Shown: positions 32,801-64,000 of the stretch, piece by piece
Numbering within the stretch: position 1 is the stretch's first letter
Layout of the letters: every line of letters begins with the position of its first letter
Assembly (NCBI GenBank): GCA_964348275.1
Contig: CAYGBT010000010.1
Coordinates: 21,424-85,423, forward strand
From: an uncultured bacterium
Lineage (GTDB): Bacteria > Methylomirabilota > Methylomirabilia > Methylomirabilales > CSP1-5
Direction: 5' to 3'
DNA: 64,000 nucleotides
The notes under the pieces: model-generated
Databases searched by the model: none
What the model saw: the letters and a program-made list of their open reading frames with translations, nothing else
Told to the model about the DNA's origin: nothing
Made by a program: the position numbers and the translations under genes

Positions 32801-34090
32801 TTAGAGAATGAAGGTGATGAAGAGCAGGACGGTGATGCCCGACAAGAGCAATGCGGTGCCCCAGCCAATAAGGTTCATGAACCAGGGATTGACCGCCTCC
32901 CCCATGATCTCGCGGTCGTTAACGAGTTGGAGCACGATCACCAGCGTGAACGGAAGGAGGATGCCGTTTAGGGTCTGCGAAAGAAACATGATGGGAATGA
33001 GAGGGACATTGGGCCAGAGAATGGTGACGGCCCCAATCCCGATCATGACCAGATAGATGGTGAAGAACCCTGGTGCCTCTCTGGGTCGCCGGTCGACACC
33101 GGTCTCCCAGCCGAGGGCCTCGCACGTGGCATAAGCCGTGCTCAAGGGAAGGACGGCGGCCGAGAAGACCGAGGCATTCAGGAGGCCCAAGGCGAAGAAG
33201 ACACTCGCATAACGTCCGGCGAAGGGCTCGAGGGCCCTGGCGGCATCCACGGCGGTCTCGATGCGGACACCGTGTGCAAAAAGGGTCGCCGAACACGCCA
33301 CGATGATAAAGTAAGCCACGCCGGTGGCCACGAAGGCTCCAAGGATTACATCTAGACGCGCATATCTATAGTCGCGCCACCGGATCCCCTTATCCACGGT
33401 CGAGGATTGCAGGTAAAACTGCATCCAAGGCGCGATGGTGGTTCCGACCAACGTGATCAACATGATCAGATAATCCCGGTCCATGTGAAATGAGGGACGG
33501 ATCGTCTGCCGCAGGACCTCGCCCCAGGGAGGGCTTCCGAGGAAGGCAGAAACCACATAGAGCAGGTACAGGGCGCTCGCGATGAGGAAGACGCGCTCGA
33601 CTCTCGCGTAGGTCCCTTGGACGACGAGCCAGGAGACGAAGAGGGCGGTCAGGGGAACGGAGAGGAACCGGGGAATGCCGAAGATTTCAAAAGCAGCCGC
33701 CGCCCCGGCGAACTCCGCGATGGTGTTGGCCAGGTTGGCGAGGACGAGAATCCCAAGAATCAGAACGGCCGGCCGGACTCCATAGCGCTCCCGGATGAGC
33801 TCCCCCAGTCCCTTGCCGGTGACCACGCCCATCCGGCTGCCCATTTCTTGCACGACGGCGAGACTGATGGCGGTGAAAAAGAGGGCCCAGAGCAGGCTGT
33901 ACCCATAGTGCGCGCCCGCCAGGGAATAGGTGGCGATGCCACCGGCATCCTGGTCCACGCTGGCGGTGATGATGCCAGGCCCCATGATCGACAAAAAGAC
34001 GAGGAGCCGGCGCTTGTGCCACCGCGGCATTCGCATAGCGTGCCTCGCTCCACCGGGACCGTGAGCCTCGACAGCGATCGCGAAGGTCAC
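32801..34090 (-). CDS. Nramp/SLC11-family transporter with NRMT-like (Mg2+-type) binding-site substitutions
   Basis: Nramp fold motifs are present, but TM1 reads ...VDQDAGGIATY... (canonical DPGN) and TM6 reads ...LVGTTIAPWMQFYLQS... (canonical GAxxMPHNLYLHS). The start may be the internal MRMPRW. Confidence 0.8.
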   Translation of the reverse strand: MTFAIAVEAHGPGGARHAMRMPRWHKRRLLVFLSIMGPGIITASVDQDAGGIATYSLAGAHYGYSLLWALFFTAISLAVVQEMGSRMGVVTGKGLGELIRERYGVRPAVLILGILVLANLANTIAEFAGAAAAFEIFGIPRFLSVPLTALFVSWLVVQGTYARVERVFLIASALYLLYVVSAFLGSPPWGEVLRQTIRPSFHMDRDYLIMLITLVGTTIAPWMQFYLQSSTVDKGIRWRDYRYARLDVILGAFVATGVAYFIIVACSATLFAHGVRIETAVDAARALEPFAGRYASVFFALGLLNASVFSAAVLPLSTAYATCEALGWETGVDRRPREAPGFFTIYLVMIGIGAVTILWPNVPLIPIMFLSQTLNGILLPFTLVIVLQLVNDREIMGEAVNPWFMNLIGWGTALLLSGITVLLFITFIL

Positions 34091-34129
34091 CTTCCGGGCG
34101 GTCCGGAGGGTCCTCCAGCCTGGAGCTTC

Positions 34130-35476
34130 CTAAATGTACTTTTTTGCCGCTCGTCGCTTCCATATCATCGGGATCAGATCGTCGAGGACGTCGTCGACGG
34201 TCACGATCCCCTCAAGCCTCGTTTCCGCATCCACCACCGGCAAGGCCGTGAGATTGTACTTCGACAACGTCTCGGCCACCTCTCTCAGGGAGGCCTCGGG
34301 CTTGACGGTGATGAGCTGCGTGGTCATGATGTCGTCCAGCCGCTCCTCAGCTCGGGCCATTATGAGCTCCCGGAGGCTGGCAACCCCCAGCAGCCGCTCC
34401 GAGGGATCGACCACGTAAATATAGTAGATAGTCTCCACCTCATCCGCCATGGCCCGGAGCTTTTCCAGCGTCTGGACTACTGTCGCCTCCGGAGGAAACG
34501 TCACGTACTCGGTCGTCATCAGTCCACCGGCCGTGTCTTCCTCATGTTCCAGCAGTTCCGCCACGTCCTCCGCCTCGGCCGGCTCCATCTCTCCCAAAAG
34601 CTCCTGGGCTTTGGCCTGTGGGAGGTCTCCCAAGATATCCGCGGCTTCATCCGGCTCCATCATCTCCAGCATATCCGAGGCTTTCTCCGGTTCGAGCATC
34701 TGAATGACCCCGGCCTGGACGTCGGGCTCGGTCTCGGTCAGGGCCTCGGCCGCCGTCTCGGGTTCCAAGGCCTCGAGGATGGCCGCTCGCTCGCTGGGGT
34801 TCAGTTCCTCCATGATGTCGGCGATGTCAGCGGGGTGCAGTTTAGCCAGCTTCGTGTAGACGGCCCGCTTTCGCGCCCTGGTCAGTTCAGTCTCAATGGG
34901 TTCCAAATGCTCCCAGGGGACCACCTCGCGGGGCAGCTCGATCCCAAAGCTCGAGACACACCACTGGAGCAGTACTTCGGGAAAAAGTCGGCGCAGCAAG
35001 CTGTGCATCCCGGCGAGCACAGCTACGACCTCGTAGCCATCGTCCCGCCACTCTAACTGCACATCGTTAACGCGGATGACGCGTCGCCGATGCGTATCCA
35101 TTACCTTTTTATCCAGGATGTTGCGCCCCAACGACATCTCGTTTCCCCTGAGATCGGTCGAGGTGAACTCCTCCCGGGGTAGCCCGAGGATGACGCCCGG
35201 CCCTGTCGGCGTCTCGGATATCTCCGCCACCACCTCCCATGGGAGAAGCAGGTCCTGCTCCCCGACGCGCGCGATACTCAACTTGCTCACCCGAGGGTAT
35301 ATCCCCCAGAGGAGCACCACCAAGTCCTTGAGCGTCCCGACCTCCCTGCCGCGACTATCCAGAACCGGCCACGATTGCAGGCGCGTCAGAAATATGGTCC
35401 GTTGTGGAGGTTCGTTCATCATACAAATCGCTCCCAGCAGGGCCTTCATAGTACGAAAGGGACGATGGGGTGTCAA
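34130..35476 (-). CDS. Soluble MgtE-like cytosolic module (PRC-barrel-like + MgtE_N + CBS pair) lacking the MgtE transmembrane pore domain
   Basis: ...LHPADIADIMEELNP...PDEAADILGDLP...EDTAGGLMTTEYVTF...LPVVDAETRLEGIVTVDDVLD... The protein then terminates at ...IPMIWKRRAAKKYI with no hydrophobic segment. It lies 39 nt upstream of the Nramp gene on the same strand. Confidence 0.8.
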   Translation of the reverse strand: MTPHRPFRTMKALLGAICMMNEPPQRTIFLTRLQSWPVLDSRGREVGTLKDLVVLLWGIYPRVSKLSIARVGEQDLLLPWEVVAEISETPTGPGVILGLPREEFTSTDLRGNEMSLGRNILDKKVMDTHRRRVIRVNDVQLEWRDDGYEVVAVLAGMHSLLRRLFPEVLLQWCVSSFGIELPREVVPWEHLEPIETELTRARKRAVYTKLAKLHPADIADIMEELNPSERAAILEALEPETAAEALTETEPDVQAGVIQMLEPEKASDMLEMMEPDEAADILGDLPQAKAQELLGEMEPAEAEDVAELLEHEEDTAGGLMTTEYVTFPPEATVVQTLEKLRAMADEVETIYYIYVVDPSERLLGVASLRELIMARAEERLDDIMTTQLITVKPEASLREVAETLSKYNLTALPVVDAETRLEGIVTVDDVLDDLIPMIWKRRAAKKYI

Positions 35477-35663
35477 TGCGAATCAGCCTCGCGATGGGCG
35501 TCCCGCTCGTCAGCGGACCTCGCCCTCTTGCTTCCTGTCTGCAAGCAGCACCAGCAGGTCCCTCGCGCCGGGCCTCTCCATCGTAGGTCGAGTGCGGAAG
35601 GGGTCGGGGAGTGGGTCTTCCCCGGCGGAAAATTCCATGGGTGGGTTTGGCGTTAGCCCTGCA

Positions 35664-35757
35664 TTCCGAGCCGAATGACGCCTGATGCATCACGACGGCC
35701 ACCCCCACCTACGCTTCGCTGTCCGAACGCTTTCGGACAGGCAAACCAGGTTCCGCC
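35664..35757. repeat. Dispersed repeat R1, copy A (conserved core GACGGCCACCCCCACCT plus hairpin 35719-35740)
   Basis: About 85% identical over about 52 nt to 39669-39720. The hairpin is CTGTCCGAA-CGCT-TTCGGACAG. A related inverted hairpin, CCGAAGGCCTTCGG, lies at 35890-35903. Confidence 0.75.
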
Positions 35758-36077
35758 GGGTCCAGGCCCAGCTCCCCTCGCCCTCCCGACGCCACTCGAC
35801 TCTCCTCGCGCCACCACCCCTCGCCTGGATGACCTCATTTTACTTGAGTTGGGCAGCATCTGCAGGGCCCGAGCGACATTGCCGGGAGCCCGAAGGCCTT
35901 CGGACCGCTCAGTGTCGCCGCGGGCCCAAAGGGTTCCGGGCTCTTGCGGAGAGGCCCGGAGCGAGGGGCCAAAGGTGCTGGTCCACCAGCTACCAACCAC
36001 CGAGCACGAGTCAAGAGCCCTCTGTTCAGCACCGCGGCGGTATGCTATGGTGATATGCTAGTGAGGAGATTCCGATC

Positions 36078-36545
36078 ATGAGTGAGGGGGAGATCCGTTT
36101 CATCGCGGATAGCATGTTGGGCAGGCTGGCCAAATGGCTCCGGATTCTGGGGTACGACACGCTTTATTTCCGAGATGCGCACGACGGTCGCCTGGTCGCC
36201 CTCGCCCGGAAGGAGGGACGAATCCTCCTGACTCGGGATACCCGAATCCTCCTGCGCCGCCGGCTCTGCCCGATACTCTTTATCCGCCATGATCGCGTGT
36301 GGGACCAATTGAAACAGGTGGCGGGTGAGCTTGAACTCAGGATGGGAGAGCGGTTCGGGAGCCGGTGTCTCCGCTGTAATCGATCCCTCGCACCCGTTGC
36401 AAAAGAGGGAGCGGCGGGTCATGTCCCGGAGTATGTCTTTCGTCATCATGATGAGTTCTTTCGATGTGAGGAGTGCGGGCGAATCTTTTGGGGGGGAACA
36501 CACCTACACCATATGGAGGAGACCGTGCGGGCACTATGCGGCTGA
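36078..36545 (+). CDS. Mut7-C/DUF82 PIN-like RNase-domain protein with a C-terminal zinc ribbon
   Basis: ...FIADSMLGRLAKWLRILGYDT...ILLTRD...; C-terminal CLRCN...CEECGRIFWGGTH. Confidence 0.75.
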   Translation: MSEGEIRFIADSMLGRLAKWLRILGYDTLYFRDAHDGRLVALARKEGRILLTRDTRILLRRRLCPILFIRHDRVWDQLKQVAGELELRMGERFGSRCLRCNRSLAPVAKEGAAGHVPEYVFRHHDEFFRCEECGRIFWGGTHLHHMEETVRALCG

Positions 36546-39524: not shown

Positions 39525-39644
39525 GAGCCGCTGCTAGCATTGATTGGTTTTTGGTGTTCGGTGTTGAGTCTTGGGTGGAGCCGGCACGGAAAGCATCCTT
39601 CGTCGGCGGAAAACTCCAGTGGTTGCTTTGGAGAAGAATTTATG

Positions 39645-39776
39645 TTCCGCGCCGAACGAATCGTGATACATCAGGACGGCCACCCCCACCTGCGCTGCGC
39701 TCTCCGAAAGCCTTCGGAGCCGTCCCGGTCCGGGAGCCCGTCCCGGGATCTCGGACCCGCAAACCGGATTCCGCCT
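39645..39776. repeat. Dispersed repeat R1, copy B (hairpin 39702-39719), flanked by heptamer arrays at 39546-39580 and 39827-39854
   Basis: Shares TTCCGnGCCGAA...CATCAnGACGGCCACCCCCACCTnCGCTnCGCT...TCCGAAnGCnTTCGGA...TTCCGCC with copy A. Flanking arrays: GGTTTTT GGTGTTC GGTGTTG AGTCTTG GGTGGAG, and GTCATCG x3 followed by GTCGACG. Confidence 0.75.
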
Positions 39777-39867
39777 TCCTCAGGATCTGCTTCCCTTGCC
39801 GGCTCGCGGGTTTTAGAAATTCTGCTGTCATCGGTCATCGGTCATCGGTCGACGGCCCGGAGGGCCT

Positions 39868-52913: not shown

Positions 52914-52989
52914 GGGGCTGTGGCGCAGTTGGGAGCGCGCTTGACTGGCAGTCAAGAGGTCGGGGGTTCGAATCCCCTCAGCTCCACCA
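52914..52989 (+). tRNA. tRNA-Ala (anticodon GGC)
   Basis: Folded by hand: acceptor GGGGCTG/CAGCTCC with G3:U70; D arm GCGC-AGTTGGGA-GCGC; anticodon arm CTTGA-CTGGCAG-TCAAG; T arm with GGTTCGAATCC; encoded CCA. Confidence 0.9.
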
Positions 52990-53003
52990 GAAATTTCGAG
53001 GGC

Positions 53004-54188
53004 TTACGGCGTCGTGCCGTGAGCCCTTTTTGTTTCGGTTGCGTATAGGTTGCGTTTGGTTGCAGTCAAAATCGGGTCCAACCGGTCCACCGCCGCCTTG
53101 TTCGCGCCAGGGATCAGGTGGCCGTAGGTATCGACCGTGACCTTGATCGAGTGATGCCCCATCTGCTCCTTGACGTACACCAGAGATTCGCCCCGTCCCA
53201 GCAAGATGCTGGCGTAGGAATGGCGGAGGTCGTGGAGGCGGATCCTCCGAAGGCCTGCCCGGGCCAAGCAGCGGTGGAACACGCGCCGCCGAAGATTGCT
53301 CTCGTCCAATGGCCCGCCAACCTCATTCGTGAAAACCCATGCCTCCGGTGAAAGCTCCTGCCCAGTCAACGCCGCCTCGGCCTCCCTAAGCGTTCGGAGC
53401 TGTTTTAGCGTGTCTGCAAGATGGAGGGACATGTCCACGCGGCGGATCTTTCCGTTCTTCGGCGGCTCGATCCGGCCGCGCGTATAGCTCTGCCGTACTT
53501 CGATGAAGCGCCCCTGAAAGTCGAGATCCCCCCACTGCAGCCCGAAGGCCTCTCCGATGCGGAGGCCAGTCCGAACGAGACAGAGGAACAGCGCGTAATA
53601 ATGGGGAGCGTAATCCTGCACGGCTTGCAGGAATCGGCCCGCCTCCTCCTCCGTCAGAGGATTGCTCTTCAGGCGGGAGTCGGCCTTCGCCTTCAAGTAC
53701 TTCCCTAGACGGGCAGCTGGATTGGTGAGCTGTAAGTCGTCCTCGATTGCGTGGTTATAGATTTCCCGGATCACGGCCACCACCTGCCGGACGGTGCTAC
53801 GACTCAACGGCTTGCCCCGAAGACCCCGCTTGAGCATTTCCGCGATGAGGCACTTGAGGTCCCCTCGGCTAACGTCTGAGAGGGCTTTGACTCCGAAGCG
53901 AGGGAAAGCATACTGCCGCAGAAGCGTACCGTACGTGGTGTAGGTGCTCACACGGCATTGGCCTTTGGCGTAAGTCTCAAGCCACCGGTCGGCATGGTCC
54001 TGGAATGTGGGTCGCCGCTCCGAGGCTTCGTCTAAAATGGCCAGCTTCCCTAGCGCCAGCCGCGCCTCCAGCTTCCTCGCCACCTCCAGGGCAGCCTTGC
54101 GATCGCCGATCTTTTTCGCCTTCCGCTTGCCTTGGTGGTTGATAAACACCCACCAGCTGCCGTCTTTCTCTCTGACCCGCACGCCCAT
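53004..54188 (-). CDS. Tyrosine-type site-specific integrase
   Basis: 394 aa; SAM-like N-domain; catalytic region ...RTGLRIGEA...HDLRHSYASILL...GHHSIKVTVDTYGHL... Confidence 0.9.
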   Translation of the reverse strand: MGVRVREKDGSWWVFINHQGKRKAKKIGDRKAALEVARKLEARLALGKLAILDEASERRPTFQDHADRWLETYAKGQCRVSTYTTYGTLLRQYAFPRFGVKALSDVSRGDLKCLIAEMLKRGLRGKPLSRSTVRQVVAVIREIYNHAIEDDLQLTNPAARLGKYLKAKADSRLKSNPLTEEEAGRFLQAVQDYAPHYYALFLCLVRTGLRIGEAFGLQWGDLDFQGRFIEVRQSYTRGRIEPPKNGKIRRVDMSLHLADTLKQLRTLREAEAALTGQELSPEAWVFTNEVGGPLDESNLRRRVFHRCLARAGLRRIRLHDLRHSYASILLGRGESLVYVKEQMGHHSIKVTVDTYGHLIPGANKAAVDRLDPILTATKRNLYATETKRAHGTTP

Positions 54189-54275
54189 TGCATCACCTCC
54201 CCGGGCGTACAGGACGCGGCGGCGTCACTGTACCACAAACAAGATCTGAGGCAAACGAGGCTAGGCTTACAGTCA

Positions 54276-54602
54276 TCACGCCAACCTCCCCTCGTCTTGG
54301 CCGCCATGTAAAGCCGGCGTGGTGGAGGGAGCACCCGCGCACGGGTCCCGTCGGCGACGCCAGGCCCTGGTACGGCAAGCGGGTGTTGCGTATTTTCGGG
54401 CCTCGCCGCGACCTGGGGAATCCAGGGGCCTCCCACATCCGCACTGGCATGGCAACAAAGGCGTCACGTGACGGCTTTCCTGGGCCGTGGAGGGACGATC
54501 CTGGGCAATCGTGCACTCCCTCCCAGCATTGGCATCTACAACCCCTTCTTGGGTCTCCTCCGGCTGCTCGGGTGAGTTTGTACTGCGTTCGATCGAACTC
54601 AT
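54276..54602 (-). CDS. Small zinc-ribbon/Arg-rich protein (paralog of 59611-59802)
   Basis: ...CQCGCGRPLDSPGRGEARKYATPACRTRAWRRRRD... aligns with CLNCKQPFEAQREDATYCGGRCRAEASRRRRD. Its start overlaps the xis stop by 4 nt. Confidence 0.45.
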   Translation of the reverse strand: MSSIERSTNSPEQPEETQEGVVDANAGRECTIAQDRPSTAQESRHVTPLLPCQCGCGRPLDSPGRGEARKYATPACRTRAWRRRRDPCAGAPSTTPALHGGQDEGRLA

Positions 54603-54880
54603 TGTGCTACCTCCTTTATGATGTGAGAGACCAACCGATTCAAATCAGCACCATCGCGTCGGAATTGAGCCATCCAGCCGTCGAACTCGGACCGGCGGAC
54701 CAAGACCTTGCCCTCCAGGCGGTAGTGGGGAAGCGGGTGCGCTGGGTCGGCCAAGGCCTTTCGCAATGTCCTGACGGACAGCCCCGAGTAGTCGGAGAGC
54801 GCCTTCAGCGAGAGGTACGGATCTAGGTCCGTCTGAATTGCGATGCTGTCAACAACACTCATTCCCTGAGTTACATGCAT
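54599..54880 (-). CDS. Excisionase-family HTH DNA-binding protein
   Basis: ...YLSLKALSDYSGLSVRTLRKALADPAHPLPHYRLEGKVLVRRSEFDGWM... is typical of AlpA/Xis (HTH_17-like) proteins; located upstream of int. Confidence 0.7.
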   Translation of the reverse strand: MHVTQGMSVVDSIAIQTDLDPYLSLKALSDYSGLSVRTLRKALADPAHPLPHYRLEGKVLVRRSEFDGWMAQFRRDGADLNRLVSHIIKEVAQ

Positions 54881-54964
54881 TCTCCGGAAAGGCTCCCGGT
54901 TAGTCTAAGTGCCCGCTTCCTCAGCTTATTGCGCTTCATTAATCGGATAGGCATTTAATGCCGG

Positions 54965-55567
54965 TCAATCATCCGGCCCCCCGGTCATTCTCGAAATATG
55001 GGTCTCGGTTCGTCGCTGATTCTGCTCCACCCATTGGCGAGCTGCCGCCATCTCTTCTTCCGTCAGGGTGGCCTGTAAGCCCTTCACATCGCAGCGATCG
55101 TCCGCTTGGCCACTTGCCGGATCGCATGTGCTGCAGTAGCCATCAGGGATATGTGGGTCTGCGTAGTCGTAGTAATTTCGTTGTGCCCCACAACGCTTGC
55201 ACGGTTCCAGGTTGCTTTCGATCTCCTCCGCCTCAGCGAACACCTTATTCCACTCTTCCTCAGTGCTGGCGATCGCGTTTTGAAATCTCTGTTCGCCTAA
55301 GGCGCTTTCGATGGTCGCCAGCCTTCGAGATGCAAATGGACGCATCCTTATCTGATAGCTGCCGGTCGTACGATAGAACCTCTCCCAAAACTCTATGTCC
55401 CGGATCTTTTCCAGATAATGTCTCGCTAGAACTTCCAGTTCATAAACTGTGGGTTTGAAGTTCTCAACAAGGCATGCTGATTTGTCGTTTACTCCTCTTA
55501 TACCTCCACCTACGACCCCTGCCAGTGGTCCTAAGCCGTCAGATTCGACTGCGATCTGGTTTTGCAT
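54965..55567 (-). CDS. Hypothetical protein (Cys cluster CKRCG...CSTCD)
   Basis: 200-aa ORF in the same orientation as the element operon; no domain recognised. Confidence 0.5.
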   Translation of the reverse strand: MQNQIAVESDGLGPLAGVVGGGIRGVNDKSACLVENFKPTVYELEVLARHYLEKIRDIEFWERFYRTTGSYQIRMRPFASRRLATIESALGEQRFQNAIASTEEEWNKVFAEAEEIESNLEPCKRCGAQRNYYDYADPHIPDGYCSTCDPASGQADDRCDVKGLQATLTEEEMAAARQWVEQNQRRTETHISRMTGGPDD

Positions 55568-55883
55568 GTTTGCTCCTTTCTTTTAGCGCGTGTTCTTCTG
55601 TCCCGACCGTTGTCTTTCTTTCACTAGGCCCAAGGTTGGGTGCTGTCCGAAAACCTCCCTGTGAAGGACGCATTACGCGTTCAATAGTTTCGTGGCGTTT
55701 CTTCTGCCTTTTCTCCGTCTCAAAAGGAACCTCTTTTGGACCAAGGGGCCGAGAAATGCACCTTTCCAAGTCGTCGATCTGCTGTGACTTTGATGGAAGC
55801 ATTTTGACAAGATGTCGCATGGGTACTCCTTTTGCCTGCCGAGTTAACTTGTGTGCATATCTGCCAGGTAGCGTCTGGCACAT
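55539..55883 (-). CDS. Hypothetical basic protein
   Basis: 114-aa ORF between the helicase gene and 54965-55567. The start is uncertain (internal MRHLVKM). Confidence 0.35.
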   Translation of the reverse strand: MCQTLPGRYAHKLTRQAKGVPMRHLVKMLPSKSQQIDDLERCISRPLGPKEVPFETEKRQKKRHETIERVMRPSQGGFRTAPNLGPSERKTTVGTEEHALKERSKHAKPDRSRI

Positions 55884-55902
55884 CGTGTGCCGCTGGTTCT
55901 GT

Positions 55903-57060
55903 TTACCCTCGCTTTTCTGTAAAGCGGCGCTTCGGCCGGTCGAAAATAACTTCTACGTTGCCTGTCGGCCCGTACCGGTTCTTGTCCACTCGGAGCACTA
56001 ACCGCACTTGAGCCTTCGTAAGCTCCTCTTTTTCGCCAAACAGGAAGTTTACTGTGTCCGCCTGTTGCTCTATCTCGCCCGATTCCCTGATGTCTGCCAG
56101 CGTTGGTTGTTCGGACCGGCGCCCCTCCACGTTCCGGTTCAACTGACAGACCAAAAGGCAGGCCGTTCCGGTCTGTTGCAGTAAACTCCGAAGACTCTGG
56201 AGGATCTCCCGGATCTCCTCCACACGGGTCTGATCCTTGCGGCGGGGCATCCTGATGAAGCCCAGGTGATCGATAAAGAGTGCCTTAATACCGCCAGCTT
56301 GGATCGCCCATCTCAGGTCGAGGGCCAGCGTGGGCCAGCAGCACGGTGAATCCTGCAGGACGTAGACTTCCTCGTCAGATAAACAGCCTTGCGCCGCCGC
56401 CAGCTCCGCCGTCTCCGAGGCCCCGATCTCAAGCGGGACGACGAGGGTTGGCATACCCGCCTTTGCCATATTGGTCGCCCACTGAACCATCAGCGTGGTT
56501 TTTCCCCGGCTGGGTCTTCCGGCGAGCACGTTGATCCTTCCAGGGGCCAATCCCTTGGTCAGCATCTCCCACATGGGAAAGCCCACGGGACGAAACTCGA
56601 TGGTACTTCTCTCCTCGTGAACCGCTCGTAGGCGAACCATCCGGCTCAGCTCTGCACCTTCACCTATGGCCTGGTCCCATATCCGCTGCGCCTCAAGCCT
56701 CTTTACACCGTACGGACGCTGGTCTTTCAGGAGCAAGTCGGCAATCTGCTTGGAAGCCCGGATCAAGCGCTGCTCACTCGCACACTCTTTCAGGCGGCGG
56801 ACCCAATACTCCTGATCCGTCCCGACCGTCTCCTCGATGACGTAATCAATCACCCGATCCTTCAGTTCTGGCTTCACGTCTTGAAGGATTTCGACACTGA
56901 CCTCCCGGCCCTCCATCGCCGCCTCACGGATTGACAGAAACACTGGCTTGAGGTCATCAGGGAAATCCTCGGGGTCGCACTGCCTGATCATGGGCAGGAC
57001 CGCCTGGGAATCAAATAAAGCCTTGGAGAGCACTTTGCGAGCGATGTCCTGCTGTCTCAT
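55903..57060 (-). CDS. DnaB-like replicative helicase (C-terminal RecA-like domain)
   Basis: Walker A ...LAGRPSRGKTTLMVQ...; Walker B-like ...ALFIDHLGFI...; ...LLVCQLNR...IRESGEIEQQADTV... Confidence 0.8.
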   Translation of the reverse strand: MRQQDIARKVLSKALFDSQAVLPMIRQCDPEDFPDDLKPVFLSIREAAMEGREVSVEILQDVKPELKDRVIDYVIEETVGTDQEYWVRRLKECASEQRLIRASKQIADLLLKDQRPYGVKRLEAQRIWDQAIGEGAELSRMVRLRAVHEERSTIEFRPVGFPMWEMLTKGLAPGRINVLAGRPSRGKTTLMVQWATNMAKAGMPTLVVPLEIGASETAELAAAQGCLSDEEVYVLQDSPCCWPTLALDLRWAIQAGGIKALFIDHLGFIRMPRRKDQTRVEEIREILQSLRSLLQQTGTACLLVCQLNRNVEGRRSEQPTLADIRESGEIEQQADTVNFLFGEKEELTKAQVRLVLRVDKNRYGPTGNVEVIFDRPKRRFTEKRG

Positions 57061-57070
57061 AGGGCTTTCC

Positions 57071-57850
57071 TCAATAGTCGGGGCCTATCCGCATTTCCCC
57101 CCGCATTTCCGTCTTCTTCGCCTCATTCAAATATGCCTCGAAGTTCTCACTACTAAAGAGCGTCTTCGGCCTGAGGAATCGGGACATCTTGGCATCGTTC
57201 AGCCACTCGTCTGCCTTGCAGGCGATCACGGCCTTGAAGTCCTCCACTGTAAAGCCCTCACTGAAGCGGGCACGGATGTGCTGACGGGTTTTCTGCGTTG
57301 AAGTCCTGAATGCCGTGTCAGCCTTCTGGTTCAAGTACGAGACGATTTCCCTGATGGCACCGAGATCGTTAGAACTCGACAATATCTCTTTCTTACATTC
57401 TTCCATTCTCACGTTATGGCCCTTACTTGGCCCTCGCTTGGCCCCTACTTGGCCCTCCTCTTGGCCCTCAGTCTGCTCTGATGATTGATAAGCGTTGAAA
57501 TTCAGTACTGTTATCTCCGTATATCTCTTGGCCCTCCTCTTGGCCCGAATTGAACCGATTCGTTCGAGGTTGACCAAAGCGCCCCTGACGACCTTTCTGG
57601 AGACCTTAGCCATCTCTGCGAGCTTCGGCTCGCTAGTCACGAAGCTGCCCCGAGCAATTTCCACCTTACCGGTCCCGTCGAACCATTTCCGGCTGATGTT
57701 GTTCGCCATCAGGAGGCACGTGGCCCAGACTTTAAACTGTCCAGGAGACAGACCCCAGACCGTGCTCTCCATCGTCTTGCGGTGAAATTTGATCCAGCCA
57801 GCAATAGTCATCAGAGATTCATGACCTTGGTCTAAGGCGCCGTTTGGCAT
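57071..57850 (-). CDS. Phage-type replisome organizer / replication initiator-like protein
   Basis: The C-terminal region ...TQKTRQHIRARFSEGFTVEDFKAVIACKADEWLNDAKMSRFLRPKTLFS..ENFEAYLNE... matches the conserved phage C-terminus (Phg_2220_C-like). It lies directly upstream of the helicase gene. Confidence 0.7.
   Translation of the reverse strand: MPNGALDQGHESLMTIAGWIKFHRKTMESTVWGLSPGQFKVWATCLLMANNISRKWFDGTGKVEIARGSFVTSEPKLAEMAKVSRKVVRGALVNLERIGSIRAKRRAKRYTEITVLNFNAYQSSEQTEGQEEGQVGAKRGPSKGHNVRMEECKKEILSSSNDLGAIREIVSYLNQKADTAFRTSTQKTRQHIRARFSEGFTVEDFKAVIACKADEWLNDAKMSRFLRPKTLFSSENFEAYLNEAKKTEMRGEMRIGPDY
57426..57546. repeat. Iteron-like array: CTTGGCCC x4 (starts 57426, 57437, 57448, 57460), a 59-nt AT-rich spacer, then CTTGGCCC x2 (57527, 57539)
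   Basis: Read directly; 11-12-nt phasing. It is embedded in the replisome-organizer coding sequence. Confidence 0.7.
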
Positions 57851-58095
57851 TAACCAATGTCATCTCCGTTTTTTAACCCTAATGTCGCTAGAAACGCTTG
57901 AATGCGTTCCTGCTCTTCCAATGTGGCGACGTGGATCTCGATATGGGAGGGCACAAATTTGCCATTGATAACTTCCCCCACGCATGTGAAGGAAGCCGGC
58001 GAAGAATGTGTCCGCTCCAAATGAACAGCCATGTCCTCAAGTTGTTGTCGCTCCATATCCCCCTGCCTCCCACTTAAATGAGATCGGCACATCAT
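57850..58095 (-). CDS. Hypothetical small protein
   Basis: 81-aa ORF whose stop abuts the start of 57071-57850; co-oriented. Confidence 0.4.
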   Translation of the reverse strand: MMCRSHLSGRQGDMERQQLEDMAVHLERTHSSPASFTCVGEVINGKFVPSHIEIHVATLEEQERIQAFLATLGLKNGDDIG

Positions 58096-58128
58096 GTGCC
58101 AAACCGGTCTCGCCTGTGGAAGTGAAGG

Positions 58129-58332
58129 TCATAGCTCACTTCTCATCTCCCGGCGGACCGCCTGGTCTAATTTTCGAATCGCTGGAACTAGCCGTTCATA
58201 CAGCGCCGTAGCGGCCATTTGCGCTTCAAGTTTCTCGGCGGCAACTTGGACCTTCAACACCCCGTTCGGACCAACGATGATCCGCATCTCAAACTCGCTA
58301 CGCATGCCCACCTCCTCCTCTCCTGGATACAC
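58129..58332 (-). CDS. Hypothetical small protein
   Basis: 67-aa ORF, co-oriented; no domain recognised. Confidence 0.35.
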   Translation of the reverse strand: MYPGEEEVGMRSEFEMRIIVGPNGVLKVQVAAEKLEAQMAATALYERLVPAIRKLDQAVRREMRSEL

Positions 58333-58444
58333 CTAGGTATCCGGCATGAGGGGCGGAAAAGCGGAACTGGATCGGAAAAAATCGTGAATGCTGGAATGCG
58401 TAGGGGGGCTAGAAAGATGGTGCAAAGAAAAAGCGGAGACCAGC

Positions 58445-59638
58445 CTACTTGTGGCGTTTCCTGGGATTCAAGTCGAAGCCAAAAATTTCAATGAGTTCGT
58501 CCGGTCGTGACTCTATCTTTTTGAGATATTTTCGCACTTGCCGGTCGGTCAGGCCAACCTGCCGGGCGATCTCAGCCTGGCTCGGTGGCCTTATGACCTG
58601 ACCGCTCTCCGTCCCTTCCGTTCCCCAAACCTCGGGGTTCAATATGATTTCTAGGATATCGGGGGCCTTTGGGCCGAAAGCCTTCTCCAATTGTTGGGCC
58701 TGATGGCGGGTTGGCAGACGCTCCTCCGACTTAATATACTCGAAAGGGAAGACAGGCGGTCTCTTTCGGATGGTTACGACTTGTTCTGGCGGCTCCTCGG
58801 GGGCCGATCGATATTTTGGACGATTTTTTTTGCGGGGAGACGGGGGCATGATGATTGTTTCGTTCTCCCTGTCCTTGGTAATCCATCTTGGACCCCGCTG
58901 GAGGCTGGCTTTCCGATCTTTCAGCCGCTTGGGGAGGTATTCCAGCTCCGCATCCAACACGTTGGCCATAAAGTCGTCGTGTGGAAGGCATCGGATCTTC
59001 TCCAATTCTTCATAGAAGACCAAAGCCCGCTGTGCTACATATTCCCGTTTTTTTTCCGGATCGTGTAGAAAAGGAATTACGTTAAATGGCTTCAGGAGTT
59101 CCCTTTCTGGCTCCAGACCCCTGAATTTAACAAGCAGTAAGATATTGAGAGTAAGGGGAAGCCGTGTAGAGCGCCTGGCGATCTCTTCTCCGATCCAATA
59201 AAAAACCGCAATGTCGATGCAGGCATCAATCCAGCAGTCCAATGCTTCCCGGACAGTGGAGCACTGTATGAGAAGCAGGAACAGGAAGAATAGCCTATCA
59301 TCGGCCTCCGAAGTGGTTCGGTACCTTTCCGGGATGCTGGTATGAATTAAGTACAGCCATTTCCAGCCCGGTGACCGGAGTTCAAGTATATCCTTACCGG
59401 AAAAAACAGAAAGATCGAGATCGAGGTCGACTATGCGCCTGGAGATCGATTCCCACACCCGTCGACAGCGAGAGATGTAGGCCCGACCTTCCTCAGTCTG
59501 AGACAGGGAGATAATAGTAGACATGATCTGTTCCGTTGATGCATGCGGAATCGCTTGGTGTGCAGACATGTGCTCCCCCCTCGACGCCTCCCTAGCGGCA
59601 AGAAAGTCCATCATCTTCCATCTGCTTCCTCGCCCCAC
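58445..59638 (-). CDS. Hypothetical protein with a C-terminal HTH (sigma-70 region-4-like)
   Basis: 397 aa; ...SQAEIARQVGLTDRQVRKYLKKI... near the C-terminus; the remainder is unrecognised. Confidence 0.55.
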   Translation of the reverse strand: MGRGSRWKMMDFLAAREASRGEHMSAHQAIPHASTEQIMSTIISLSQTEEGRAYISRCRRVWESISRRIVDLDLDLSVFSGKDILELRSPGWKWLYLIHTSIPERYRTTSEADDRLFFLFLLLIQCSTVREALDCWIDACIDIAVFYWIGEEIARRSTRLPLTLNILLLVKFRGLEPERELLKPFNVIPFLHDPEKKREYVAQRALVFYEELEKIRCLPHDDFMANVLDAELEYLPKRLKDRKASLQRGPRWITKDRENETIIMPPSPRKKNRPKYRSAPEEPPEQVVTIRKRPPVFPFEYIKSEERLPTRHQAQQLEKAFGPKAPDILEIILNPEVWGTEGTESGQVIRPPSQAEIARQVGLTDRQVRKYLKKIESRPDELIEIFGFDLNPRKRHK

Positions 59639-59802
59639 ATGACCCGCCGGATCTTCCCCAAGGCTCTCTCCGCCTCGTCCAGCGCAGCCGCCAGTTCCCG
59701 GTCCCGGCGCCTTCGGGATGCCTCGGCCCTACATCGCCCGCCGCAGTATGTCGCATCCTCTCTCTGCGCCTCGAAGGGCTGTTTGCAGTTCAGACAAATC
59801 AT
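59611..59802 (-). CDS. Small zinc-ribbon/Arg-rich protein
   Basis: MICLNCKQPFEAQREDATYCGGRCRAEASRRRRDRE...; first gene of the leftward operon; paralog of 54276-54602. Confidence 0.5.
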   Translation of the reverse strand: MICLNCKQPFEAQREDATYCGGRCRAEASRRRRDRELAAALDEAERALGKIRRVMWGEEADGR

Positions 59803-60025
59803 CCGTCGTTTCTCTTCCGAATCTCCCGCACGTGCGGCTGCTGGGCTAAAAAAAAGAGCCGTTCAGGGCCGGTCCCGTCTTATTATGAGCCGCCGCTTTG
59901 ACTTTACACACTACATACAGAGCAAAATTTATACCATCCTCAAAAAAGTTCGCACGTTTTTACCGCCTTTTTTCTTATGGGACATCGCCACAATGAAATT
60001 CCCGATGTGGTCACTGGCGCGCTCA

Positions 60026-60115
60026 TCACCCCAGCACATCACCAAGATCCCGGAGCGGCAGGCCGATCTGACGCGCCACCTCAGATTGTGTCAAACCAAG
60101 CGCCTGGCGAGCCAA
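60026..60115 (-). pseudogene. Possible remnant of an XRE-family HTH regulator
   Basis: My own minus-strand translation gives (TTG)ARQALGLTQSEVARQIGLPLRDLGDVLG*. This is a textbook HTH helix 2-3 segment, but only 29 codons are open. The palindrome at 60133-60149 lies just upstream. Confidence 0.3.
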
Positions 60116-60325
60116 TAAATTACGGAAATTTTCTGCACATCATGTGCAGGAGAGATTGGGGGTGCTCTCAATGCGGGAGGGGGGAAATCGGACGCGATAG
60201 CATGCCGAACGAACCTATTCACGAGGCGCAGTGCAAGCTGCCGAATGCCGTTTGTGCGATCTTTGTCTCAGTGCGCAGACCAATATGAGCTAACCATTCA
60301 ATTTCACTGTCTCGTTCCAAAAAGC

Positions 60326-60366
60326 AGACACTATTGAGACACTATGTAGACACCAACAGCAGACAC
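60326..60366. repeat. Four direct AGACAC repeats phased 11/11/13 nt
   Basis: AGACAC at 60326, 60337, 60348 and 60361, read directly, in the non-coding region upstream of the GIY-YIG gene. Confidence 0.6.
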
Positions 60367-60434
60367 CCCCGTTCCTGGTCAGCCGGACGAAGACTTGCTG
60401 ATCCCCCAATTTCAATCGGCTATAATGGTCGGGT

Positions 60435-60743
60435 ATGAAGCCGAAGTACTTGAGGATGCTCCAGCGGATGGCGGAGGACCCCCGGCGGCAGGCGACCACA
60501 TGGTCGGTCTACATCCTGCGCTGCCGGGACGGGACCTACTACACGGGGATCGCCAAGGACGTGCAGGAGCGCCTGAGGAAGCACCAGGCGGGAAAGGGCG
60601 CCGCTTACACCCGGACCCGCCTGCCGGTCGAACTACTTTATGAGGAAAACGGCCTGCCCCGGTCCGAGGCCCTGGTCCGGGAGGCGCGGATCAAGGCTAT
60701 GCCGCGCGCAAAAAAAGGGCGGCTTGCTCGGAAGAAAGTTTAA
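60435..60743 (+). CDS. GIY-YIG nuclease-family protein (UPF0213-like)
   Basis: ...WSVYILRCRDGTYYTGIAKDVQERLRKHQAGKGAAYTR...LLYEE... The start may be internal. Confidence 0.8.
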   Translation: MKPKYLRMLQRMAEDPRRQATTWSVYILRCRDGTYYTGIAKDVQERLRKHQAGKGAAYTRTRLPVELLYEENGLPRSEALVREARIKAMPRAKKGRLARKKV

Positions 60744-61238
60744 TTTCACGCGTGCAACCCCTAGCACGCCCGCGTCCCCTCCAACTCCCGCCGCACCGCC
60801 TTGATCTCCTCTCTACCTATATATCGCAGGGTGTTTCACCGCCAGGGACATAAGTTAGATATAGATAGGTAATATATGACGTGGGGGTCAGAGCTAGATG
60901 CGTGCGTGACGGGCCGGTGGGCGTGTGATGGTGGATGGGCCAACCGTATCACCTCGATCAGCCTGGAACTATGTGGGATGGTACGGGCACCGTCTTATAA
61001 CAGTCTTGAAAGCCAGAGACGAACCGGCACCACCCTATAAATGTTTGTCGCCTCGTAGTGACTGGGTTCATCGCGCCGCCCCTGAGAGCACTGGGCAGGC
61101 GCGAGTGATCGTGAACCCGCCTGCTTGCAAGGCCCTCCTACGGTGCGCTCCAGATGACCTTGTCAACCTTGTAGAGCATGCCCATCGCTCAGCCCTCCCC
61201 TATCAGTACGACATGCCGCGATAACCTACCTGCCCCAG

Positions 61239-61682
61239 TTATGGATTGCTAGGGCCACTACTGGGGAAATGTCTTGCTGTCCAGGGATTCACCTGGCGCC
61301 ATCGACTAACGATTTCTCCCCGCTTGGCCATCTCAACGATAGGAGACATGATAAAATCAAAGTCATCAGACATATAGGGGAGGATTAGATCTGGCCTTTC
61401 CTTGGAGAGAATGTAGAGGCCAAGGGCGATTGGTGGCTGAGGAGCTTTACTCGTCATAGACGCTAGCGAGAAAGGCGCTGTCTCAGAATAGTACCAGACT
61501 TCAGGCTGACCGCCCCATGTCCCACGGGACTGAAGCGTCATAGCTAACCAAGCGTTGGGGTCGCGCTCAGCATGTTCTAACATAAATTTCGCAAAGCACT
61601 TAACCTGAGTCTCAACAACGCTCTCAGCAAGAGCTTGCGGGTTCCCAAAAACCCCCCTAAGCATTTTCCAGAATCCCATCAC
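61239..61682 (-). CDS. Hypothetical protein
   Basis: 147 aa; 4-nt overlap with the upstream ORF; no domain recognised. Confidence 0.5.
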   Translation of the reverse strand: MMGFWKMLRGVFGNPQALAESVVETQVKCFAKFMLEHAERDPNAWLAMTLQSRGTWGGQPEVWYYSETAPFSLASMTSKAPQPPIALGLYILSKERPDLILPYMSDDFDFIMSPIVEMAKRGEIVSRWRQVNPWTARHFPSSGPSNP

Positions 61683-61942
61683 TCACCCTTTTTTTCGCCG
61701 CCACTTAATTGCTTGTCATGCTCCAAACGCTTCTTCTCCCATTTGCGAAGAGTTTCGCCTTTCTTCTGCTGTTTTTCCTTGATCCTTCTAACGGCCCGCC
61801 GATGGTCCCGTGCGTATGTCACCCCTGACCCCTCCTTCCTCCTGTGTTCGCGTTCGATCTCGGTGCATCTATTTACGGTGCGCTCCAGAGGACCTTGCCG
61901 GCCTTTACCGGCGCAGGACATTGCCGGCTGTTGGTCAGCCAT
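61679..61942 (-). CDS. Hypothetical highly basic small protein
   Basis: 87 aa, Lys/Arg/Glu-rich. It contains one copy of a 24-nt direct repeat (61874-61897). Confidence 0.4.
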   Translation of the reverse strand: MADQQPAMSCAGKGRQGPLERTVNRCTEIEREHRRKEGSGVTYARDHRRAVRRIKEKQQKKGETLRKWEKKRLEHDKQLSGGEKKGE

Positions 61943-61962
61943 TCCCCGCTCCGGTAAGAAAA

Positions 61963-62967
61963 TTACTGCCTCACCATCAGGGGTGTGAACCCTTCCTTCT
62001 TCAGAGCCTCAACGGCCTTCTGGGCCTCCGCTCGGTTCTCATACTCGCCAATCCGCACTTGGTGCACTGGGGTGGGGGCAGTCTCGGAGTCGATCTTGGA
62101 CGTGTAATTCTTCTTTCGTAGACTGCGGGCCAAATCGATGGCCTCGTTCAGATGAAACGATGACCCGACCTCCAGACGGAATTTCCCTCCCTCGATTTCG
62201 ACTAGGTTGGATGGAAACCCATCAACGTTCAGACTCCGCGCCGTCTTTTCTGCTTCCTCACGGCTGCTAAATTCCCCGGCATAGACTCGATGGCGAGTAA
62301 TGGGGACCGTGGTCATGCGGATGACCGGATTATATCCGAGTCCTTCTAGCTGCTTCTTGAGGGTGAGGGCATTCCGCTCGACGCCCAGACTGGCGACTTG
62401 GAGGGTATATCGCTTCTCCCTCTTGATCTCGGGCTCGGTCACCTTCGCCATCGGTTTTGGGACCGGTTTCTCCGCGACAGCCGGGGCTCGTGGTGGCTTG
62501 GGGCTTGCCTGCGGAACCTCGGGGGGCCCGACTACTACTGGAGGAGCCTCTTCCTTAGGACGACCTGTCACCGTGGGAGGTGCGGGGGTTGGAGGCCACT
62601 CTCCCGTTAGGTTTTTGCAGTGTACGTAGCCTAATCTCCCCCCGGACGCGACCTCTTTGATCTTGCACCAGAGCACCTGTCCTGCTTCGACAACAACTCT
62701 GATCTCCACGAGGTCCCCCCGCGCGAGCGTGAACACCATGTTGCTGGTTGTGTCCATCCGAGGGAACACGGGCACCGAGTCGCTCTCTACAACCACCTGG
62801 TTAAGCGGGGCTTTCTCCTCAGCCGCCTTACCGGGCACAGCTAGCCCCAATAGCACCACAGCGGCAATCGCGGCAAAGGCGATGACTCCCGCCCTCTTCA
62901 ACCGCCGATTCTCTCGCTCCACCCGCTCCAGCCGTTGTATTAGGGTTTCCATCGTTGGCTGATTCAT
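61963..62967 (-). CDS. Membrane-anchored SH3b-like + Pro-rich linker + double SPOR-domain peptidoglycan-binding protein
   Basis: N-terminal coiled coil and TM (...VIAFAAIAAVVLLGLAV...); SH3-like ...ARGDLVEIRVVVEAGQVLWCKIK...; two SPOR-like units (...YTLQVASLGVERNALTLKKQLEGLGYNP..., ...HQVRIGEYENRAEAQKAVEALKKEGFTP...). Confidence 0.7.
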   Translation of the reverse strand: MNQPTMETLIQRLERVERENRRLKRAGVIAFAAIAAVVLLGLAVPGKAAEEKAPLNQVVVESDSVPVFPRMDTTSNMVFTLARGDLVEIRVVVEAGQVLWCKIKEVASGGRLGYVHCKNLTGEWPPTPAPPTVTGRPKEEAPPVVVGPPEVPQASPKPPRAPAVAEKPVPKPMAKVTEPEIKREKRYTLQVASLGVERNALTLKKQLEGLGYNPVIRMTTVPITRHRVYAGEFSSREEAEKTARSLNVDGFPSNLVEIEGGKFRLEVGSSFHLNEAIDLARSLRKKNYTSKIDSETAPTPVHQVRIGEYENRAEAQKAVEALKKEGFTPLMVRQ

Positions 62968-63965: not shown

Positions 63966-64000
63966 ACGTTGTCCTTGTCTTTCAAAGCAAGCGCAAGCGT

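Follow-up and report, generated by a model that had tools for sequence, protein, structure and literature searches.

Does the sensory part of a Mg2+ channel, detached from its pore, control an unrelated carrier that is encoded next to it? This question is raised by two neighboring genes on the minus strand of a 64-kb stretch of DNA (the window, below) from an NC10/Methylomirabilales genome. One of them encodes a carrier of the Nramp/SLC11 family and the other, directly upstream, a protein that resembles the cytosolic part of the channel MgtE and is called the partner here. A previous sequence-only reading had taken the two for a candidate system of Mg2+ uptake and regulation and had assumed that the pairing was undescribed.

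The latter assumption does not hold. Shin et al. 2014 (PLoS Genet, PMC4072509) named NrmT, examined its genomic context and found most NrmT genes immediately downstream of a homologue of the MgtE cytoplasmic domain (their Fig. S5 shows "mgtE-nramp operons"). The authors also speculated on the role of the MgtE-like fragment and named cytoplasmic feedback regulation and, alternatively, a metal-chaperone activity (PMC4072509). Thus, the mgtE-like/nrmT pairing was already published in 2014, regulation in trans is a re-derived published hypothesis, and the window locus, a further operon of this kind, introduces no principle of its own. The published operons (Ca_c0685, Ca_c3329; Acp2976-Acp2977; PMC4072509) have the same gene pair in the same order, and the window pair comes from another phylum, NC10. 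The A. capsulatum operon lacks an M-box riboswitch, as the window does, while the C. acetobutylicum operons carry one, and the Ca_c0685 partner is split into two genes.

In the searchable literature, we found no follow-up of the partner after 2014: it is not discussed in the EleNRMT paper (PMC8806188), MgtE is not mentioned in Cellier's SLC11 phylogeny, and NRMT is absent from two relevant reviews. The comparative analysis presented here sharpens the picture, as the partner is nearly obligatory in bacteria and archaea, keeps the Mg2+ ligands of the N/CBS interface and has lost the plug helix. We lean, with modest confidence, towards the view that it senses cytoplasmic Mg2+ and, acting in trans, restrains NRMT, an uncoupled uniporter.

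Identity of the carrier and of its partner

The NRMT-clade Nramp/SLC11 gene lies at 32801..34036 (minus strand, as do all features of the pair) and encodes 411 aa from an ATG at 34036, as delimited by Pfam profile PF01566, the match to EleNRMT and database gene calls. The longest open reading frame (ORF) for the carrier, 32801-34090(-), has 429 aa and opens at a GTG at 34090; that of the partner, 34130-35476(-), has 448 aa and opens at a TTG at 35476. Both ORFs were found where the sequence-only reading had placed them. According to database gene calls and homologue alignments, both genes start 18 codons later.

The carrier matched the Nramp profile PF01566 with E=1.1e-97 over profile positions 1-355 of 357, in agreement with the Nramp/SLC11 fold claimed for it, and has at least 9 hydrophobic segments. 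Its best match among solved structures was EleNRMT (7qia; E=7e-106, 44% identity over the whole carrier). The next structure reached 7e-32, MntH about 1e-25 and the plant aluminium transporter NRAT 6e-12. Additionally, the NCBIfam MntH model scored 152 bits, far under its 430-bit cut-off.

The metal-site motifs point in the same direction. The strings VDQDAGGIATY and LVGTTIAPWMQFYLQS are present in the carrier translation and match NDAGGISTY and IGTTIAPWMMFFNQ of EleNRMT column for column. In TM1, the motif D-A-G-G (33938..33949; D30 and G33 in the 411-aa numbering, aligned to EleNRMT D55 and G58) has a Gly in place of the Asn of the canonical DPGN, and DAGG recurs in 75 of 81 related NRMT ORFs. 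The TM6 motif G-T-T-I-A-P-W-M (33422..33445) is identical to EleNRMT 223-230, with T199 for Ala and A202 for Met, aligned to EleNRMT T224 and A227. All three substitutions named previously (Asn to Gly, Ala to Thr, Met to Ala) therefore stand in the columns of EleNRMT G58, T224 and A227. The roles of these residues in the site have been described, and T224 is needed for the interaction with Mg2+ (PMC8806188). The proton-pathway histidines of helix 6b give way to the non-protonatable W204, which takes the place of the first of them, and L209 (W229 and N234 in EleNRMT), and the helix 10 Gln (SQTLNG) is kept. DAGG, GTTIAPWM and this Gln are all shared with EleNRMT (PDB 7QIA), which was studied alone, whereas the window carrier is encoded with a partner and is known here from its sequence. 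As judged from the E-value gaps (7e-106 against about 1e-25 for MntH) and the site motifs, the carrier belongs to the NRMT clade of SLC11, as had been proposed.

The upstream gene, at 34130..35422, encodes a soluble 430-aa protein with the domain order PRC-PRC-MgtE_N-CBS-CBS, as supported by Pfam, NCBIfam, a match to 2yvy and AlphaFold; its homologues are 423-430 aa long. Pfam recognized MgtE_N (PF03448, E=4e-27) and a CBS pair (PF00571, E=1.4e-23, in two stretches). The NCBIfam model mgtE (TIGR00400) reached 197 bits against a cut-off of 232.75 and covered profile positions 11-250 of 450 only. The cytosolic domain of TtMgtE (2yvy) was matched with E=7e-41 and about 41% identity over 240 residues.

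The pore, in turn, was not found. The Pfam scan detected no PF01769 pore domain in the partner, and there is no transmembrane (TM) or hydrophobic segment, the maximum 19-residue Kyte-Doolittle mean being 1.15. Across all frames of the 64-kb window, a tblastn search with six MgtE pore domains detected no pore coding (best E=0.3). Because pore domain, TM segments and pore-coding DNA are all absent, the partner is not a MgtE channel. The claim that MgtE_N and the CBS pair form a separate, pore-less polypeptide is borne out by these searches, in which no pore appeared in 34130-35476 or could be recovered by repairing a frameshift. A frameshifted or hidden pore is ruled out by the tblastn result, and the 39-93 nt before the Nramp gene would be too short for one anyway.

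The N-terminal part of the partner has no counterpart in TtMgtE. An AlphaFold model of residues 1-180 (pLDDT 84, pTM 0.77) consists of two consecutive small beta-barrels. PRC barrel 1 (aa 9-79; 35186..35398) is recognized from AlphaFold strands, Foldseek and PF05239 matches on most homologues, and PRC barrel 2 (aa 95-175; 34898..35140), which has a two-helix insert, from AlphaFold and Foldseek. The second barrel is the best-conserved N-terminal part across phyla (Nterm2 profile 1e-11 to 1e-25 at 64 loci). Pfam gave a single, sub-threshold PRC match for the window partner (18.9 against 21.2 bits), and in relatives the PRC match is over the cut-off, at 37-47 bits.

The best Foldseek matches of residues 1-180 were CdpB1/CdpB2 of A. 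fulgidus (175 columns, E=1e-5), followed by reaction-centre H subunits, the PRC proteins 8onw, 3htr and 1pm3, and RimM. CdpB1/CdpB2 (PDB 8QZO) have two consecutive PRC barrels like the partner, with 15-17% identity, which amounts to a likeness of fold only. Unlike the partner, CdpB proteins bind SepF, act in archaeal division and have neither MgtE_N nor CBS domains. In the model, then, the N-terminal ~180 aa form a tandem PRC barrel, which agrees with the two PRC-barrel-like segments noticed before. No paper that names "PRC-barrel" and "MgtE" together was found in the searchable literature.

The remaining domains follow TtMgtE (PDB 2YVY, 2YVX, 2ZY9), with which the partner shares the N domain, the CBS pair and the ligands of Mg4, Mg6, Mg7 and half of Mg5. 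The MgtE_N superhelical domain (aa 195-296; 34535..34840; PF03448) contains E226, D258 and D262, and the CBS pair (aa 301-415; 34178..34522; PF00571, two stretches) contains N390, D411 and D414. In contrast to TtMgtE, the five TM helices of the pore are missing together with its Mg1 site, the tandem PRC barrel is added N-terminally, and IWKRRAAKKYI replaces the plug helix. The C-terminal basic tail LIPMIWKRRAAKKYI (34133..34177) ends the protein where MgtE has its acidic plug helix, and P418, I420, W421, K422 and R424 in it are invariant among NC10 homologues. Relatives with the module in cis to a MgtE pore keep an acidic EEATEDI at this place, while the stand-alone partners stop 5-20 residues past CBS2, usually in a basic tail. 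The idea of this tail as a universal plug was rejected, as it is very short in Syntrophales.

Occurrence of the pair and of the partner's module

To see how regularly the two genes occur together, we scanned the genomes of GTDB, one for each species, with an NRMT alignment. From at least 598 matching loci, we took the best 80, which have 50-86% identity to the window carrier, and analyzed them with 5-kb flanks. Partners were detected with profiles of four partner parts run against six-frame ORFs. Five loci had no upstream DNA and were set aside as uninformative, which left 75 of the 80.

The partner adjoins NRMT in 69 of these 75 loci (92%), in about 15 phyla including archaea, so the pair is conserved across genomes. 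It lies directly upstream on the same strand at 64 loci (one frameshifted, three cut by a contig end), convergent downstream at four and downstream on the same strand at one. Many pairs, e.g., L003, L013, L048, L073 and L080, have a 4-nt overlap of stop and start codons. Bacterial hosts include NC10, Omnitrophota, Chloroflexi, Nitrospirota, Planctomycetota, Acidobacteriota, Syntrophales and other Deltaproteobacteria, as well as Firmicutes, Spirochaetota, Zixibacteria, Actinomycetota and Armatimonadota; the archaeal ones are Methanocellaceae, Methanobacteriaceae and a Woesearchaeote.

Both N-terminal barrels were detected in 60 of the 65 partners that have MgtE_N and the CBS pair. Pairwise identities among the carriers rise and fall with those among the partners (matrix correlation r=0.63, a value reached by 0 of 999 permutations), and the carrier is the more conserved of the two, with a mean pairwise identity of 58% compared to 37% for the partner.

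We then compared the Mg2+ sites of TtMgtE, as listed by Maruyama et al. 2018 (PMC5882242), with the window partner and with the 64 stand-alone partners. Both Mg4 ligands are present: D91 corresponds to D258 and D247 to D411, each being Asp in 51 of 64 partners. The Mg6 ligand D95 is the best kept (D262 in the window; Asp in 62/64), and the Mg7 ligand E59 aligns to E226, with Glu or Asp in 49/64. For Mg5, D250 aligns to D414 (Asp or Glu in 47/64) and D226 to N390, a position that is Asp in 9/64. The conservation of these residues is established, and so are that of the gene pair and the identities of both proteins.

M-box riboswitches (RF00380) were sought at 40 related NRMT loci and are present at three of them (L034, L045 and L051). 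In a Firmicutes genome (L034, 3420-3590) and in one of Geobacteraceae (L051, 3452-3618), the M-box stands before the partner, which is followed by NRMT. In Peptococcaceae (L045, 4551-4717), it directly precedes an NRMT gene without a partner. The riboswitch and the partner may be partly alternative means of control. Neither partner nor M-box was seen in the fetched flanks of L022 and L046 (magnetotactic Nitrospirota), L026, L033 and L036.

The partner's domains are not confined to NRMT loci. A tandem-PRC profile matched 1044 cluster representatives at E<=1e-10, and we classified the best 150: 54 are soluble stand-alone forms, 26 are proteins of 590-660 aa with a C-terminal membrane region, one is a P-type ATPase fusion, two are other proteins of 600-650 aa with no TM segment at the threshold used, and 67 are fragments.

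These stand-alone forms bear on the suspicion that the partner is a decayed MgtE that lost its pore by truncation or frameshift. The missing pore domain fits this suspicion and nothing more does. No pore-coding remnant is left in any frame of the window, the 410-450-aa architecture that ends right after CBS2 recurs at 64 loci in many phyla, and soluble forms are as numerous among the best 150 representatives as stated above. We regard gene decay as excluded.

In the longer proteins, the module does have a pore. PRC, MgtE_N, CBS and PF01769 occur together in three of four scanned 590-660-aa proteins and in the 735-aa P0431, so that P0246 (UCH34487.1, Armatimonadota, 598 aa), P0249, P0277 and P0431 are PRC-bearing true MgtE channels. 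P0246 is 38% identical to the window partner over residues 2-402 and has the same domain order, PRC1-PRC2-MgtE_N-CBS pair. Channels of this type run on into the acidic plug helix and the PF01769 pore, whereas the window partner stops and adjoins an unrelated carrier. As full-length MgtE channels have the PRC barrels too, the PRC extension is not specific to pore-less partners.

In a further family, the module is N-terminal to a P-type ATPase of the MgtA type (P0261 and P0391-P0396, 1265-1318 aa). This family comprises seven clusters with 57-100% identity, from NCBI, JGI, ENA and Logan. We found no description of the PRC-MgtE_N-CBS-ATPase architecture in the searchable literature. Two independent contigs (L086 3001-6948 and L087 3001-6948) show one of the ATPase fusions beside mgtC and a gene for a ZIP transporter. 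Since MgtE-pore and ATPase fusions share the barrels, the PRC barrels belong to the module, and a role as a docking adaptor specific to NRMT is unlikely for them.

The module is thus joined to three unrelated Mg2+ import machines, and of all the indirect evidence this speaks most strongly for a regulatory role related to Mg2+. We tentatively suggest, as a possibility that may well turn out otherwise, that PRC2-MgtE_N-CBS2 is a portable cytoplasmic Mg2+-sensing gate, joined in evolution to at least three unrelated classes of Mg2+ importer, that acts in cis on the MgtE pore and on the MgtA-type ATPase and in trans on NRMT, with the tandem PRC barrel as an integral, undescribed part of it. We found no earlier description of such a portable gate. 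If so, in the NRMT pair a MgtE-type sensor would, for the first time, be seen to regulate a carrier of the LeuT fold, and to do so as a dissociable subunit.

According to another explanation, the partner is a stand-alone CBS protein that senses Mg2+ or a nucleotide, acts on a different target and shares no more than its expression with the carrier. Stand-alone CBS proteins are widespread and have diverse targets, the adenine-nucleotide site is kept in part (Y334 and R351 for TtMgtE Y170 and R187, with F227 changed to L391 and N203 to T367), and P0422-type relatives have no Nramp gene nearby. This explanation fits poorly with an adjacency of 92% over very wide phylogenetic distances, with overlapping stop and start codons, with the correlated divergence of carrier and partner, and with the fact that cis fusions join the module to transporters only. 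We consider it improbable.

P0422 itself (781 aa, Coriobacteriia; L081 4001-6346) has no Nramp gene near it. There, as in P0262 and P0301, the module is followed by a C-terminal region of 200-330 aa with 5-7 hydrophobic segments that has no Pfam match, the MgtE pore included. This region may be an uncharacterized membrane domain gated by the PRC2-MgtE_N-CBS2 module.

An apparent fusion to an NRMT was also encountered. P0418 (L085 1601-4504), one ORF of 967 aa, combines the module with 3-4 TM helices and an NRMT and lies on a 5.5-kb scaffold beside a transposase. What seems to be the same module is present in P0419, together with half an AcrB, and in P0437, together with a MatE domain; its domain positions and scores agree among the three. 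These three, and also L084 4001-7010, are probably assembly chimeras, and we set P0418, P0419 and P0437 aside as proof of a link between partner and carrier. A genuine fusion of module and NRMT may exist in Coriobacteriia-like genomes. Another candidate for a module-Nramp fusion, P0417, was rejected, as it reads into an Nramp gene out of frame.

Proposed feedback in trans and competing explanations

The feedback that we favor would work as follows. The carrier most likely imports Mg2+, and probably also Mn2+, like EleNRMT, with import driven by the membrane potential and free of proton coupling. Made together with the carrier, the partner would attach to the cytoplasmic face of the latter and, like MgtE, would probably be dimeric. 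A rise in cytoplasmic Mg2+ would let the ion bridge the N and CBS domains at acidic sites of the Mg4, Mg6 and Mg7 type. The Mg2+-bound partner would be locked in a compact state, and this state would keep the carrier inactive. The outcome would be fast negative feedback on an otherwise unregulated uniporter.

Such feedback is suggested because the genes are linked and the ligands conserved, because the MgtE module behaves in this way, and because an uncoupled uniporter needs a brake. Other electrophoretic Mg2+ importers, namely MgtE and CorA, are gated by cytoplasmic Mg2+. In MgtE, the module closes the pore upon Mg2+ binding (PMC5882242), and it works in cis via the acidic plug helix. Additionally, we counted the partner-NRMT operons that are preceded by an M-box (L034 and L051) as a tie to Mg2+. 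From all this, we infer that the partner binds the carrier, that it senses Mg2+ and that the direction of its effect is negative. Since a short tail, basic for the most part, stands in for the acidic plug helix, any contact with the carrier must differ from that in MgtE.

A number of observations weigh against this proposal. Carriers of this clade function on their own, as seen for CacNrmT in B. subtilis (PMC4072509) and EleNRMT in proteoliposomes (PMC8806188), and six of the informative loci have no partner within 3.4-5 kb. The A. capsulatum carrier behaved mainly as a Mn2+ transporter (PMC4072509), and no M-box was detected in the window at the gathering threshold, nor at E<=10 in 35300-36200. 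In the window partner, the Mg5 ligand D226 is lost to Asn (N390), the plug-helix ligands E258 and D259 (Mg2, Mg3) align to Lys and Arg of IWKRRAAKKYI, and the residues of the ATP site are kept in part only. The tail is not uniform, with about 5 residues only in Syntrophales. The AlphaFold model of the full-length partner (pLDDT 79.8, pTM 0.43) is unreliable as to the relative placement of the domains. Finally, co-expression of the A. capsulatum pair Acp2976/Acp2977 in B. subtilis gave no further rescue of a Mg2+-transport mutant (PMC4072509). This is a weak point against the proposal, as a negative regulator is not expected to improve rescue and rescue at low Mg2+ alone was scored. In MgtE, the lost gating of deltaN and ATP-site mutants came to light through metal toxicity (PMC5529423).

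The most probable of the rival explanations concerns the ion. It holds that the pair serves mainly the uptake of Mn2+ or of a broader range of transition metals and that the partner senses Mn2+ or another cation, not Mg2+. In the work of Shin et al., the NrmT of A. capsulatum, whose operon includes a partner but, like the window, no M-box, gave full rescue of a mutant in Mn2+ transport and only weak rescue of one in Mg2+ transport (PMC4072509). The authors suggested that its partner may respond to Mn2+ and proposed the M-box as a marker of NrmT Mg2+ specificity (PMC4072509), a marker that the window lacks and only 3 of 40 related loci possess. Mg2+ transport has been demonstrated for CacNrmT (PMC4072509) and EleNRMT (PMC8806188), and the latter is an uncoupled transporter of both Mg2+ and Mn2+ (Ramanadane et al. 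2022, PMC8806188). The sequence-only reading, which had the clade carry Mg2+ rather than Mn2+/Fe2+, was therefore too strong, as EleNRMT also carries Mn2+ and the A. capsulatum NrmT favors it.

Other observations speak against a Mn2+ system. Site motifs are identical in NRMTs with and without an M-box; for this same reason, the substrate preference cannot be read from sequence. The ligands kept by the partner are hard carboxylates at sites where MgtE binds millimolar Mg2+, the module also occurs in fusions with MgtE pores and with MgtA-type ATPases, one of these beside mgtC, and uncoupled uniport would fit an abundant ion better than a trace metal. Taken together, we find it unlikely that the pair is mainly a Mn2+ system.

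The sign of the effect may also be questioned. The partner might be no inhibitor but a positive factor: it could assist assembly or stability, activate the carrier as a subunit, or serve as a metal chaperone to which the carrier hands over the ion. A tight operon with translational coupling would suit any obligate subunit, Shin et al. listed chaperone activity (PMC4072509), and PRC barrels are modules of protein-protein interaction or scaffolding in CdpB and in the reaction-centre H subunit. Against such a role, NRMTs are active alone in heterologous cells and liposomes, co-expression brought no gain in rescue (PMC4072509), and the homologous MgtE module closes its pore upon Mg2+ binding. A positive role ranks second among the rivals and is, to our mind, rather unlikely; a different target comes third, and decay, which is excluded, last.

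NRMTs are the fourth class of prokaryotic Mg2+ importers, the only characterized one is an uncoupled uniporter, and the partner has been the obvious candidate since 2014 for preventing cytoplasmic overload. If gating in trans is true, it would extend the gating mechanism of MgtE to a different transporter fold and offer structural work a natural, separable sensor subunit.

Layout and surroundings of the locus

The spacer between the partner stop and the NRMT start measures 93 nt (34037..34129, minus strand, read from the sequence), has GGAG/GAGG 8-14 nt before the ATG and shows no terminator-like site on the minus strand. The gap of 39 nt given previously applies to the longest ORFs and becomes 93 nt with the ATG start at 34036.

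Upstream of the partner, a match to a sigma-70-like promoter, TTGACA-17-TACTAT followed by GGGAG, was found at 35448..35476 on the minus strand, by consensus only. It agrees with the consensus at 10 of 12 positions and lies 26 nt upstream of the ATG at 35422; in this region, 5 sites were found compared to 1.0 expected. The TTG at 35476, with which the longest partner ORF opens, is the first base of TTGACA in this match. The promoter-like match and the 430-aa database gene calls thus argue for ATG 35422 as the true start.

Other riboswitches upstream of the operon were considered as well, and only weak matches to sX11 and sR53, which we judged to be noise, turned up there. The same region, divergent upstream of the partner gene, holds one copy of a dispersed intergenic repeat of about 170 nt (window 35618-35790). 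The second copy (39599-39800) has the same orientation and lies upstream of rpe. The 74-nt cores of the two (35664-35737 and 39645-39718) are 84% identical, copy 2 has a 37-nt insertion, and both hold a TCCGAA-N4-TTCGGA hairpin. We rejected a regulatory RNA function for the core, since it occurs just twice, copy 2 precedes an unrelated gene, and it folds no more stably than shuffled sequences.

The neighbors of the pair are housekeeping genes, and nothing points to a mobile element close to it. On the downstream side, the minus strand carries a gene for an envC-like M23 peptidase along with ftsX, ftsE, a TPR gene, algH and radC, and on the upstream side there are Mut7-C, fmt, rsmB, a PASTA gene and rpe. 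Farther away, a tRNA-Ala(GGC) gene at 52914-52989 of the window is directly followed by a tyrosine integrase gene (53004-54188, minus strand), past which lie genes for a DnaB-like helicase (55903-57060) and a phage Phg_2220_C protein (57071-57850). The G+C content falls from ~0.60 to 0.53-0.56 in 52914-64000, and this part of the window is probably a prophage or an integrative element inserted at the tRNA gene.

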